Under the pieces are notes generated by a model that saw only the letters and a program-made list of their open reading frames with translations, was not told the origin of the DNA and did not search any database. Position numbers and translations under genes: made by a program. Shown here piece by piece: positions 3,410-21,853 of a stretch of 32,000 nt of DNA. The DNA comes from Nostoc punctiforme PCC 73102. GTDB lineage: Bacteria; Cyanobacteriota; Cyanobacteriia; Cyanobacteriales; Nostocaceae. The DNA is taken from positions 3,540,001 through 3,572,000 of the forward strand of contig NC_010628.1 of NCBI RefSeq assembly GCF_000020025.1, given 5' to 3'. Positions within the stretch are counted from its first letter, which is position 1, and every line of letters starts with the position of its first letter.

Positions 3410-3836
3410 TGTTACTCATCCTCTCGTTACAATAGCCTTCAATGGCTTAAATAATTGCTGCGTCAGTATCGATACGCGAATAGACTGTAGCGAACAACTG
3501 GCTTGTTGAGTGATACCGTAGCGATGCGTAGACGCTTGCTTGCCGCTCCAACTTTATCTTCACGACACTCTATCTAGTAAGATTCCCATCTGGTTACAGG
3601 CTCGACACTCAACATACATCGCCACTTTTGCACCGTCTTGTGCAAACAGCACCATTAACCATCTGCCCAATCTCAGTTCATATATTCGGTTTCCTTGTTA
3701 AGAGCGTGAAAATCAACATATCTTTTTATAACGGTTGTATCTTATATTGGATTAATCATATATTAGCATAAACTTATAAGAAGTAGATAGTTATAGAACC
3801 TAGTGAGAAAATGTCAATTATGGGAAAACAGCCTTA

Positions 3837-5852: not shown

Positions 5853-6557
5853 TTATTTTTCCCTATAACCCCCAGCGTAGTCAATTACGCAGATTGTTCT
5901 ATATGATTTGTGAGTTCCATAAGCAACGCCAGACACTTTAAAAGCGCCGTTAAATATATTTTTTCTATGGCCGCGATCGCGCACACCATCATCAATAATT
6001 AATTGCATGACGATATCTTGGGCAGTGTTTGGGCCATAGCTAATATTTTCGCCAGCCGTTGTTTGCCATGCACCATAGCGGTTGATGCGAGTAAAAGGGT
6101 TGCTACCATCGCTACCATCATGACCTGTAACACCTCTTGGCCCTTGGTCTTTAACATGGTCTTTTGCTCCTAAAGACATACCTTTAGAAGCACTTAAAGC
6201 TCCTACAGGACGTGCAGATTTCAAAAATGCGATCGCTTCATCGACTGCTTTGACTCCTTCTTGAGTTCGCAAATAGGTATTGTTAAAAATTTTGACTCGG
6301 TTCCCTTCAAAGCGCTTCCTATAGTTTTCCAGAATCGGGAGATATGACTTGGGATTTGTTCGTACCTTATTGGTTTCAACAATTACCTGTTGTTCAAGTG
6401 GTGAAAGGTAACTCGCCTTTGCTAATAAAGTTGGACTGGTTGGTTGAACTACTGCTGGGTTAGAGTTTGCCACAGATGGACTAGATTGAAATAGTTGATT
6501 TGAGCAACCGAATATTAGGGTAACTGGCAAAAGTACCCAAAGTTTAATGCGATGCAT
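5853..6557 (-). CDS. CAP/SCP (PR-1-like, YkwD-type) domain lipoprotein
   Basis: Signal peptide with a lipobox-like LIFGC. The C-terminal CAP-domain motifs (NRYGAW...GENISYG, GHRKNIF) are typical of bacterial SCP/YkwD proteins. Confidence 0.8.
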
Positions 6558-8810: not shown

Positions 8811-8836
8811 ATTGGGCATTGGGCATTGGGCATTGG
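8811..8836. repeat. Tandem heptamer repeat (ATTGGGC x3.7), STRR-like
   Basis: attgggc attgggc attgggc attgg lies directly after the bcp stop. A C-rich partial complement (8858-8878) follows and could pair with it. Confidence 0.8.
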
Positions 8837-11256: not shown

Positions 11257-11283
11257 AATTACGAATTACGAATTACGAATTAC
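11257..11283. repeat. Tandem heptamer repeat (AATTACG x3.9), STRR-like
   Basis: aattacg aattacg aattacg aattac spans the stop codon and the last four codons (IRNS) of the minus-strand ABC ATPase. Confidence 0.8.
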
Positions 11284-17039: not shown

Positions 17040-17672
17040 GTGGGAAGTCGCATCAATTCACGCCAAATGCATCTGAGATTTTCTCAAGATATAAAGTCTC
17101 TGTTACAACGCCTAGCTGAACAACCGCTTACTCTAGGTGATGTTTTGGCAGAAACCTCAGAACGAGGGTTCAGCCTGGTGATTACATTATTAGTTTTGCC
17201 CTTTTTATTTCCTATGCCACCTGGATTAACTGGCCCTTTTGGTGGTGCTTGTTTACTGTTGTCAGCGCAAATGGTTTTAGGGAGGCGATCGCCTTGGCTG
17301 CCGAAAAGAATCGCTAACTACAAATTTCCTCGTCCCTTCGCCCAGTTATTGTTGCAAAATTTGGGACGTCTTACCAAAGTTTTACAGAAAATAGCCCGTC
17401 CCCGATTGGCAAAAATAGCCCATAATCCTTTGATTTGGCGAATTAATGGGTTTTGTATCTCTTTATTAACAGTATTACTAATATTACCAATTCCGTTTAC
17501 CAATCCTATCCCTACTATAGGTATTTTACTTTTGACTGTTGCCACCATCGAATCTGACGGTTTATTAATTTGTATCAGTTACGGCATTACTGTTTTAATT
17601 ACCTTGCTGTTTGGATTTTTGGGTTATGCAGTATGGTTAGCTCCCAGTTTACTACCATCTATCTTTAAATAA
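17040..17672 (+). CDS. Exopolysaccharide synthesis ExoD family membrane protein
   Basis: ExoD-like block LGDVLAETSERGFSLVITLLVLPFLFPMPPGL...GRRSPWLPKR plus C-terminal TM helices. The track start is GTG 17040; an alternative ATG lies at 17067. Confidence 0.8.
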   Translation: MGSRINSRQMHLRFSQDIKSLLQRLAEQPLTLGDVLAETSERGFSLVITLLVLPFLFPMPPGLTGPFGGACLLLSAQMVLGRRSPWLPKRIANYKFPRPFAQLLLQNLGRLTKVLQKIARPRLAKIAHNPLIWRINGFCISLLTVLLILPIPFTNPIPTIGILLLTVATIESDGLLICISYGITVLITLLFGFLGYAVWLAPSLLPSIFK

Positions 17673-17725
17673 TAAAAGCCCCCAGCTTTAGGCTAAGGGC
17701 TGTAATTTATTAGGGTGCATCTACC
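17671..17725 (-). ncRNA. Candidate small RNA, array unit 1 (5' end is a guess)
   Basis: Minus-strand hairpin AGCCCUUAGC-CUAAA-GCUGGGGGCU (17677-17701) followed by UUUUAUU. The conserved segment GAUGCACC.UAAUAAAUUAC lies upstream. A TAATAA -10-like box and CCCGGA sit further upstream. Confidence 0.45.
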
Positions 17726-17814
17726 ATTTATTAATCCGCTTTATTGATTGCTATATCCGGGTAAATTATGTTTTTTGACAGATTTATTTGATCGACACAT
17801 TAAAAACTATAAGT

Positions 17815-17871
17815 AATAAAAAAGCCCATAGCGTTAAGCTAAGGGCTGTAATTTATTAAGGTGCATCTACC
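17815..17871 (-). ncRNA. Candidate small RNA, array unit 2 (5' end is a guess)
   Basis: Minus-strand hairpin AGCCCUUAGC-UUAAC-GCUAUGGGCU (17823-17847) followed by UUUUUUAUU. The upstream conserved blocks match unit 1. Confidence 0.45.
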
Positions 17872-17958
17872 ATTTATTAATCCGCTTTATTAATTGCTAT
17901 ATCCGGGTAAATTAGGTTTTTTAACAGATTTATTTTATTTTAAAATTATAAATTTAAT

Positions 17959-18014
17959 TAAAAAAGCCCTCAGCTAAAAGCGGAGGGCTATGATTTAATT
18001 AAGGTGCATCTACT
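17959..18014 (-). ncRNA. Candidate small RNA, array unit 3 (diverged; 5' end is a guess)
   Basis: Minus-strand hairpin AGCCCUCCGC-UUUUA-GCUGAGGGCU (17965-17989) followed by UUUUUU. The GAUGCACCUUAAUUAAAUC segment is retained, but the promoter-like region is diverged. Confidence 0.35.
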
Positions 18015-18302
18015 ATTTATATATCCGCCTTAGTTCTTGCTGCATCAGGAAGAATTGAAAAAAAATGGATAACTGTGGAATCGATTTTGTTAGCTATAAA
18101 ACTAGTACTAGTCTGAACGAGGACAACCTGTGGTTTTTGACTAGATAATCATTGACTAACTTCACATTAATTTTACAATTAACCCGAATTTTACCTAAAT
18201 ACACAAAGTTTTTGTTAATATCTCTGATGCTATATCCGCAATAGTACGAATTTAGTTTATTAGTTGGGTATATGACTATGAAAGTTAGACGCACCCAACT
18301 TA

Positions 18303-18860
18303 ATGAAGCGATCGCCATTTCTATTAGCCCTTGCTAGCCTTTGTATTGTCGGGGGAAGCTTTTTTATCAGAACAGCTTTTAGCAGTACTAGCGAACCTAA
18401 AATAATAACTGATACATCACGCTACAAAGAAATTCGTAATCAGCTATGGTCTGATAATGATCGAGTAAAACATTTTCCTAATCAGATTCCTACTGATGCC
18501 AAAGACGTTCGTATTGCTTACTCTCCAGAATTTTTGCAAGGAAGTACTTTTTTTCAAATTAGGCTGAAACAGCCACCAAACAAGATAGAAAAATTGCTGT
18601 CACAATACAGAAATAGTGCAAAGTACAAATATAGAGGTGGCAACACAAACGAACACATAAACCAACTTAACGGTGTGCCGACAACTTTTTTCTACACCAG
18701 TGACTCTTCTACAGAATCTTTTCCAGCTACTTATGAAATACTAGTATTAAATGCAGACGACAAAGGCAGACCTGGCTTCAAATGGAATCATGGAGATAGC
18801 TATGGTGTCGCTATTAGTAGTTCCGCCTCAGAAATAATCTATTGGTCTGAAAAATGGTAG
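18303..18860 (+). CDS. Hypothetical secreted/membrane-anchored protein (185 aa)
   Basis: ATG start and an N-terminal hydrophobic signal-like segment (FLLALASLCIVGGSFFI). No domain recognised. Confidence 0.6.
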   Translation: MKRSPFLLALASLCIVGGSFFIRTAFSSTSEPKIITDTSRYKEIRNQLWSDNDRVKHFPNQIPTDAKDVRIAYSPEFLQGSTFFQIRLKQPPNKIEKLLSQYRNSAKYKYRGGNTNEHINQLNGVPTTFFYTSDSSTESFPATYEILVLNADDKGRPGFKWNHGDSYGVAISSSASEIIYWSEKW

Positions 18861-21731: not shown

Positions 21732-21853
21732 CAATACTTGTCGGGTTTTGGGGAAAAGAGGAAGGGGAAAAGGGAAAAAACCTTTAACCCTTACCCTTTA
21801 ACCTTTTCCCCAAACCCAATTCTGGGTTCAAAATGCACGAAGCGAGTAGTATT
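21732..21853. mobile_element. MITE-like palindromic element, copy A (about 122 bp) with target-site duplication
   Basis: Termini are AATACTTGTCG...CGAGTAGTATT and the inner arms are GGTTTTGGGGAAAAG...CTTTTCCCCAAACC. The element is flanked by the direct repeat GGGTTAGGTCT at 21721-21731 and 21854-21864. Confidence 0.65.

Follow-up and report, generated by a model that had tools for sequence, protein, structure and literature searches.

NsiR1 is the earliest known marker of heterocyst differentiation, its promoter is a standard tool for heterocyst-specific expression, and reviews place its genes in a tandem array at hetF. Is there a second, separate locus of this small RNA (sRNA) family beside another gene? 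The question is raised by a 630-nt gap in the genome of Nostoc punctiforme PCC 73102, which runs from the stop codon of exoD (17672) to the next open reading frame (ORF, from 18303) in a stretch of 32,000 nucleotides (contig NC_010628.1, 3,540,001 to 3,572,000; hereafter the window, with positions counted from its first nucleotide). An earlier sequence-only reading of the window had correctly delimited this gap and proposed that it holds an NsiR1-like sRNA array at a locus other than hetF, possibly a paralogue array, or else an undescribed tandem sRNA family. We find that the three units in the gap belong to the known NsiR1 family, leaving the idea of an undescribed family unsupported, that related Nostoc genomes carry such an array in addition to the one at hetF, and that its linkage to exoD recurs across the Nostocales.

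Three NsiR1-family genes downstream of exoD

The Rfam NsiR1 model (RF02399) was the sole family to reach its threshold anywhere in the window. Searching with this model, a check which the sequence-only reading had proposed, matched all three units over the full length of the model, two of them above its gathering score of 39 bits (Table 1), and the units are therefore members of the NsiR1 family. In minimum free energy folds, units 1 and 2 show the NsiR1 layout, in which a short 5′ hairpin (GGU...ACC) is followed by an unpaired linker and then by a Rho-independent terminator. Unit 3 retains the terminator but has one pair fewer in the 5′ hairpin because of an A at position 2, and in the alignment it looks like the exoD-linked units that Trichormus, Anabaena, Dolichospermum and Nostoc PCC 7524 have as single copies. 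The window array is like NsiR1 at hetF (PMC4030482; PMC9045159) in its RNA of ~60 nt, the 5′ motif UGGUAGAUGCACC, the single-stranded linker, the intrinsic terminator, and the tandem copies with their own promoters and a DIF-like −35 hexamer at identical spacing. It differs in that it adjoins exoD and is not antisense to the hetF 5′ untranslated region (UTR), has three copies where hetF-linked arrays have 5–12, carries a different terminator sequence, and scores 31–44 bits against 42–78 bits (nearly all 58–78) for the hetF-linked copies.

The tandem layout is regular. Tandem Repeats Finder reported a repeat at 17668–18032 (period 146, 2.5 copies, 84% matches, score 491), and the predicted RNA 5′ ends on the minus strand (17726, 17872 and 18015) give unit spacings of 146 and 143 nt, in agreement with the head-to-tail period of 142–146 bp, and one nucleotide from the starts (17725, 17871 and 18014), that had been estimated earlier. 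Read on the minus strand, every unit closes with a 25-nt hairpin followed by a U-tract, as the sequence-only reading had described, and the predicted RNAs of units 1, 2 and 3 fold at −17.9, −15.5 and −15.7 kcal/mol (z = −1.6, −2.5 and −2.5). The loops and the pairs 6:20 and 7:19 quoted there also read as given; a C-U mismatch at pair 8:18 of the unit 3 terminator stem went unmentioned. The unit 2 terminator hairpin has one U-U mismatch, and the U-tract of unit 1 is interrupted (UUUUAUUAUUU). Promoter-like region and terminator are present three times each, so that the array has the tandem direct repeats, each with both elements, described in the NsiR1 literature.

Table 1. Positions of the exoD-linked array and adjoining genes in the window; identity is to five orthologues, from a profile over six orthologous Nostoc arrays
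Feature	Position	Strand	Evidence	Identity
exoD, ExoD family, 201 aa from ATG (ORF start 17067/17040)	17067..17672	+	Pfam PF06055, E 3.8e-56	
Unit 1, NsiR1-family sRNA gene (exoD-type), 56 nt	17671..17726	−	RF02399 43.5 bits, E 1.5e-5 (whole window), full model 1–60; fold	0.94
Unit 1 terminator hairpin, 10 bp, loop CUAAA	17677..17701	−	Terminator scan and fold	
Unit 1 core promoter: CCCGGA 17756–17761 (−35 to −30), GGAT 17734–17737 (−11 to −8)	17727..17761	−	Sequence	0.92
Unit 2, NsiR1-family sRNA gene (exoD-type), 57 nt; hairpin 17823–17847	17816..17872	−	RF02399 40.5 bits, E 8e-5 (whole window), full model 1–60; fold	0.86
Unit 2 core promoter: CCCGGA 17902–17907, GGAT 17880–17883	17873..17907	−	Sequence	0.93
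Unit 3, divergent NsiR1-family sRNA gene, 57 nt, 5′ start UAGUAGAUG; terminator 17965–17989	17959..18015	−	RF02399 31.0 bits, E 5.7e-4 (sensitive search of 17400–18400), full-length, below gathering score; fold	0.93
Unit 3 core promoter: TCCTGA 18045–18050, GGAT 18023–18026	18016..18050	−	Sequence	0.93
185-aa gene, signal-peptide-like N-terminus	18303..18860	+	ORF	

Could these units be a dispersed, non-transcribed intergenic repeat, or mere terminator hairpins of the flanking genes? The unit 1 hairpin could indeed terminate exoD, but units 2 and 3 do not lie beside any gene end, and conserved promoter-like boxes stand upstream of each unit. A 16-mer common to the units (GTAGATGCACCYTRAT) occurs three times in the 32 kb, always inside the array, where 0.03 occurrences are expected and 0 of 100 shuffles reached three; in other genomes, among the scan loci listed, the motif is confined to hetF or exoD contexts and is not scattered, which is how the dispersed-repeat test that accompanied the sequence-only reading came out. 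We regard such an origin as scarcely credible.

Two further comparisons excluded other sRNAs. The probe sequence of the 51-nt sRNA 4547237r of PCC 7120 was without a match, and NsiR8 (171 nt) and NsiR9 (122 nt), DIF+ heterocyst-specific, HetR-dependent single-copy sRNAs of heterocystous cyanobacteria (PMC4734099), are much longer and have neither an Rfam nor a sequence relation to the window units.

A second locus in addition to the hetF array

According to published descriptions, every heterocystous genome examined has its nsiR1 tandem copies upstream of hetF or close to it (PMC4030482, PMC6596454, PMC9045159, PMC3610870), the proximal copy being antisense to the hetF 5′ UTR. The window lacks this arrangement, as tblastn with a HetF reference (taken from locus L002 and verified by the NCBIfam equivalog NF045509 at 1470 bits) found no match in its 32 kb. 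The array adjoins exoD rather than hetF, a departure that concerns the location and not the molecule.

A collection-wide scan for the 5′ motif of the family returned at least 120 loci and, among those listed, six are syntenic with the window: L027 (Nostoc LEGE 12450, 94.5% identity), L037, L019, L097, L089 and L030. Four related Nostoc genomes carry both arrays, namely Nostoc P2164 (hetF-linked array L010, exoD-linked array L019), Nostoc P12545 (L048 and L097, respectively), Nostoc LEGE 12450 (L133 with 8 copies, L027 with 3 copies) and Nostoc P12569 (L134 with 5 copies and L089, ~64 kb apart on one contig). The hetF-array copy numbers come from the two hetF loci available whole, and LEGE 12450, the closest relative, stands in for the hetF locus of N. 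punctiforme itself. Because the two arrays coexist in these four genomes, the exoD-linked array is, as judged by comparison of loci, a paralogous second NsiR1 locus; together with the RF02399 matches and the absence of HetF this bears out the paralogue array suspected earlier. We found no mention of NsiR1 with exoD in the papers examined, and extra copies may have been noted elsewhere before; relative to the literature examined the exoD-linked locus is new, and it is a recognisable subtype and a modest extension of a known family.

Linkage to exoD across the Nostocales

The neighbourhood of exoD is not peculiar to N. punctiforme. We examined 15 exoD loci of Nostocales, which represent at least eight genera, and all 15 have between one and three NsiR1-type units directly after exoD and convergent with it. 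Besides near-identical loci (98.5–99.8% nucleotide identity to the window), the unit-bearing exoD loci include those of Trichormus variabilis SAG 1403-4b, Nostoc PCC 7524, Calothrix PCC 7507, Anabaena PCC 7108, Dolichospermum LEGE 00246 and Scytonema PCC 10023, and two units each are found in Cylindrospermum NIES-4074 and Fischerella muscicola PCC 7414. The gene on the far side varies by genus (DHQ-synthase-like, thioredoxin-reductase-like, peptidase S13, or the 185-aa gene of the window). The two contexts also separate by motif: among the scan loci listed, the A-variant (YTAAT) was present at 11 loci, of which seven had exoD and none had hetF within the same 8-kb block; the G-variant (YTGAT) was present at 109 loci, of which 16 had hetF and none had exoD. 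On these comparisons the exoD linkage is ancient and conserved across the Nostocales.

ExoD of PCC 7120 and of ATCC 29413 was not among the best 120 homologues, which include many Nostocales, a result that leaves its absence from these strains unproven. The lack of a close exoD copy in PCC 7120 may be why the locus stayed hidden in the model strain, and a possible (unproven) lack of exoD-type copies there is one reason why these sibling RNAs are unstudied. A literature search for exoD together with heterocysts found no link, matching only exonuclease papers and a general exopolysaccharide survey; the linkage to exoD itself suggests a possible connection to polysaccharide production.

Such a constant neighbour raises the possibility that the main role of the units is in cis on exoD, where the units converge on the gene and share its terminator. 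Strong sRNA transcription, or read-through, would then lower exoD expression through transcriptional interference or antisense pairing, trans targets being secondary. Across genera exoD is the only conserved neighbour, always convergent and with no other gene between. In the window the 3′ U-tract of unit 1, which is weak as well as interrupted, overlaps the exoD stop codon, and the terminator scan placed sites on both strands there (17701–17677 on the minus strand, 17683–17702 on the plus strand); the hairpin, terminator-like on the plus strand after exoD, may work in both directions. Units overlap exoD similarly in Nostoc PCC 7524, Calothrix PCC 7507 and Cylindrospermum. Over all loci, however, the nearest unit may overlap the exoD stop or lie up to ~450 nt away from it, so that the overlap geometry is not conserved, whilst the RNA body and 5′ motif are conserved also far from exoD, as fits a trans-acting RNA, and the exoD translation-initiation region is without notable complementarity. 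A chiefly cis-acting role is thus quite unlikely in our judgement.

Several loci showed individual peculiarities. In Goleter apudmare (L024, 7495–7555) an exoD-type unit with a TCCTGA box and YTAAT has no exoD detected in the remaining 445 nt of the block, and it may be an exception to the linkage or have a diverged neighbour gene. In GCA_037619055.1 (L121) the block of kinase, exoD, array, 185-aa gene and dehydrogenase is flanked by IS630-family transposase fragments (266–1212 and 5857–6548), which are absent from the window; in this strain (L121, 3749–3805) units 1 and 2 have identical terminators, a hint of gene conversion. Another assembly (L122), 99.2–99.8% identical, has two units only (minus strand, at 3660 and 3803), the unit 2 promoter being fused to the unit 1 body; either recombination deleted 146 bp or the assembly of short reads collapsed the repeat.

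Promoter and RNA anatomy of the exoD-type class

We aligned 31 exoD-linked units (alignment A1). Invariant columns are the CC-GA core of the −35 hexamer, GGAT at −11 to −8, GTAGATGCAC, the ends of the terminator stem and the T-tract. The −35 hexamer is CCCGGA in 14 units, TCCTGA in eight, TCCGGA in at least five and ACCGGA in one, and it ends exactly 29 nt before model position 1, in exoD-linked and in hetF-linked (TCCGGA) copies alike. The window hexamers (CCCGGA, CCCGGA and TCCTGA in units 1–3) are each one mismatch from the DIF1 sequence TCCGGA at canonical spacing, with a differing −10 region, and the DIF+ promoter class allows one mismatch (PMC6133370). CCCGGA also occurs in 5 of 49 hetF-linked copies, perfect TCCGGA is found in exoD-linked orthologues of several other genera, and TCCTGA is kept in all unit-3 orthologues as well as in Nostoc PCC 7524 and Cylindrospermum.

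The suggestion made from the sequence alone that CCCGGA is DIF-like is consistent with all of this, and its description of CCCGGA followed after 22 nt by TAATAA in units 1 and 2 was accurate. Its choice of TAATAA as the −10 box is probably wrong: TAATAA occupies −7 to −2 and lacks conservation from genus to genus, so that GGAT, invariant in the 31 units, is probably the better candidate for the −10 element. A search of the array for NtcA boxes found none, as would fit an indirect, DIF-type control.

The RNAs themselves form a recognisable class. The exoD-type RNAs carry the 5′ motif GUAGAUGCAC, then the linker and then the terminator; at RNA position 16, 30 of 31 exoD-type units have A and 71 of 72 other units have G. 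In the exoD type the linker reads UAAUAAAUUACA or UAAUUAAAUCA, as against UGAUAACUAACU in the hetF type, and the linkers of the window RNAs contain the stretches CCCUAAUAAAUUACAG and CCUUAAUUAAAUCAUAG.

The region around −10 bears on when and where the units would be expressed. The hexamer at −13 to −8 is consistently GCGGAT in the exoD-type class versus TAGAAC in canonical nsiR1, the two having in common only G at −11 and A at −9, and Wegelius et al. reported that heterocyst specificity needs an appropriate −10 region as well as DIF1 (PMC6133370). The units might accordingly be transcribed NsiR1-family members whose altered promoter gives them a different expression programme, in other cell types, under stresses or constitutively; NsiR1-like genes with TCCGGA or TCCTGA in non-heterocystous cyanobacteria (see below) mean, moreover, that the box alone is no proof of heterocyst expression. 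We consider a different programme unlikely, as the CC-GA core and the exact spacing are invariant, perfect TCCGGA occurs in several genera, the G at −11 and A at −9 are those of canonical promoters, and neither an NtcA box nor a strong sigma-70 promoter takes the place of the DIF-type layout. With a CCCGGA or TCCTGA box and the candidate GGAT −10 element, the three window promoters are further compact natural variants with which to dissect the cell specificity of DIF promoters.

Selection on the units

Across the six orthologous Nostoc arrays, identity to the window is 0.86–0.94 in the RNA bodies and 0.92–0.93 in the core promoters (Table 1), compared with 0.93–0.94 in the flanking coding sequence and 0.69 and 0.78 in the two inter-unit spacers. 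RNA and promoter are conserved like coding sequence whilst the spacers drift, a pattern which indicates purifying selection on both. Each of the three units can be recognised as an orthologue in the seven aligned genomes of the N. punctiforme clade, so that the triplication is older than these species and not a recent neutral duplication.

The sequence-only reading had also argued against a recent neutral duplication, correctly, but its argument, that paired changes in the terminator hairpins reveal selection on RNA structure, did not stand up statistically. Covariation on A1 was not significant (90.6% of cells pair versus 90.0 ± 0.4% in shuffles, 79 of 500 of which were as high) and two-sided pair changes were limited to six cells in four pairs (19 of 500 shuffles). 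Most stem variation in A1 is one-sided wobble change, and the pair changes within the window are likewise one-sided wobble changes or mismatches.

The same data speak to whether the units are decaying, non-functional relics of an nsiR1 array duplicated or translocated from hetF. Their lower Rfam scores, imperfect promoter boxes and the terminator-stem mismatches in units 2 and 3 would suit relics; their persistence at one position in at least eight genera, Fischerella and Scytonema among them, would not, nor would the conservation of promoter and RNA beside drifting spacers or the invariance of the promoter and 5′-motif columns in 31 units. Decay is very improbable on this evidence.

Proposed expression and targets

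The explanation that we favour, and consider quite likely, is that the window array is a second cluster of three NsiR1-family sRNA genes, paralogous to the hetF array, with DIF-type expression and base pairing in trans. Each unit would be a self-contained minus-strand gene, with a DIF-type −35 box and the conserved GGAT around −10, predicted to encode an RNA of ~56 nt that consists of the 5′ motif, an A/U-rich single-stranded linker and the intrinsic terminator. Canonical NsiR1 members are HetR-dependent, heterocyst-specific base-pairing sRNAs (PMC4030482, PMC9045159). The literature describes NsiR1 induction on nitrogen step-down as dependent on NtcA and HetR and confined to developing heterocysts. 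By analogy with nsiR1 of Nostoc PCC 7120, nitrogen step-down would lead the HetR-dependent DIF machinery to activate the units in differentiating heterocysts, and their RNAs would act by base pairing with mRNAs.

A precedent for divergence within the family is given by the siblings NsiR1.1 and NsiR1.4 of PCC 7120 (PMC9045159), which likewise have a common 5′ part and different linkers, the small linker differences shifting target preference (hetF versus alr3234). Those siblings sit in a single hetF array, whereas the exoD-type class has its own locus, separately conserved across the order. Since the exoD-type linker also differs from the hetF type, this precedent makes distinct targets likely, and the exoD-type RNAs probably have targets partly different from those of the hetF-type copies. 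For genomes with both arrays, we predicted duplexes of 13–15 bp and −25 to −33 kcal/mol between the exoD-type RNA and the hetF 5′ UTR, compared with −42 to −44 kcal/mol for hetF-type copies in trans and −60 kcal/mol for the cis copy, all energies that ignore accessibility and mostly reflect the common 5′ motif; the common 5′ 13–15 nt of the exoD-type RNAs could pair weakly with the hetF 5′ UTR. A duplex scan of the 25 translation-initiation regions in the window yielded no target that stood out (the best reached −20.0 kcal/mol, around the first percentile of the background), and neither exoD nor the 185-aa gene was outstanding.

A number of points weigh against the favoured explanation. Transcription and cell specificity of the window units are what we infer; perfect TCCGGA is present in none of the three; around −10 they have GCGGAT in place of the canonical TAGAAC, in a region on which heterocyst specificity depends (PMC6133370); scores of 31–37 bits put unit 3 and the single-copy units from other genera under the Rfam gathering score; and to these are added the non-significant terminator covariation, the limits of the duplex energies just given and the lack of an outstanding target among the 25 regions. 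The promoter is the main uncertainty.

More tentatively, and as a possibility we hold to be somewhat doubtful, the exoD-linked units may constitute a sibling sRNA subfamily of ancient origin, dating back to the common ancestor of Nostoc, Fischerella and Scytonema, with its own diagnostic sequence, promoter variant and presumed regulon, which may tie heterocyst development to exoD and envelope polysaccharide. Such a subfamily would have been overlooked because PCC 7120 seemingly lacks a close exoD copy and most single-copy members fall just below the Rfam threshold. With its own conserved locus and a different pairing region, the subtype would bring unstudied sibling sRNAs into the heterocyst regulatory network, and as the Rfam gathering score misses most members of the subtype (31–37 bits), annotations under-count the NsiR1 family.

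Neighbouring features of the window

The gene order near the array is a DAGK/YegS-type kinase, exoD, the 185-aa gene and a short-chain dehydrogenase. ExoD in its 201-aa form, from the ATG, is 100% identical to a recorded protein cluster of N. punctiforme, and a look-up of the GTG-start form gave no exact match. The 185-aa gene has no Pfam or NCBIfam match and its orthologues were found by tblastn only in the close Nostoc loci, this neighbour being not conserved outside the N. punctiforme clade. Within the region upstream of it (18140–18302), positions 18200–18300 are conserved at 0.94–1.00, above the coding sequence, a pattern that hints at either a small upstream ORF or a conserved element of the 5′ UTR; a good sigma-70-like promoter (TTGACT-16-TACAAT, 18152–18179) lies ahead of this stretch, and an mRNA from it would start downstream of the array, with no overlap with unit 3. 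The sequence-only reading had stated that the gap holds no ORF of 60 aa or more; there is one of 74 aa on the minus strand (18094–18318), outside the array, which overlaps the start of the 185-aa gene, has no Pfam match and is probably spurious. Elsewhere the window contains perfect or near-perfect heptamer tandem repeats, ATTGGGC x3.7 (8811–8836), AATTACG x3.9 (11257–11283) and AACCTTT x4 (21779–21806), which resemble the short tandemly repeated repetitive (STRR) sequences that characterise heterocystous cyanobacteria.

NsiR1 genes outside heterocystous cyanobacteria

The scan also recovered NsiR1-family genes in filamentous non-heterocystous cyanobacteria, with Rfam scores of 45–57 bits where tested, above the gathering score. 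They comprise tandem copies (L004, L046, L009, L007 and L071), single copies beside hetF homologues (L109, L115, L103, L012 and L082) and a gene in Trichodesmium IMS101 (L026 at 6886, minus strand). In many of them TCCGGA or TCCTGA lies 29 nt upstream to the nucleotide, so that these cyanobacteria have a DIF1-like box although they make no heterocysts. NsiR1 is called verified in heterocyst-forming cyanobacteria by one review (PMC6596454), although Table S3 of PMC4734099 has 38 NsiR1 homologues, 27 of them heterocystous. Given NsiR1 genes with DIF-like promoters beside hetF in non-heterocystous cyanobacteria, an NsiR1-hetF module would predate heterocysts, a wider frame that belongs with the tentative sibling-subfamily view above.

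A third type of promoter precedes NsiR1-like genes at three loci (L058, L054 and L075), where a GGGGGTGACACCCCCC palindrome followed by TATACT or TATATT replaces the DIF-like box; the hosts are Symplocastrum, Symploca SIO3C6 and a marine metagenome-assembled genome.

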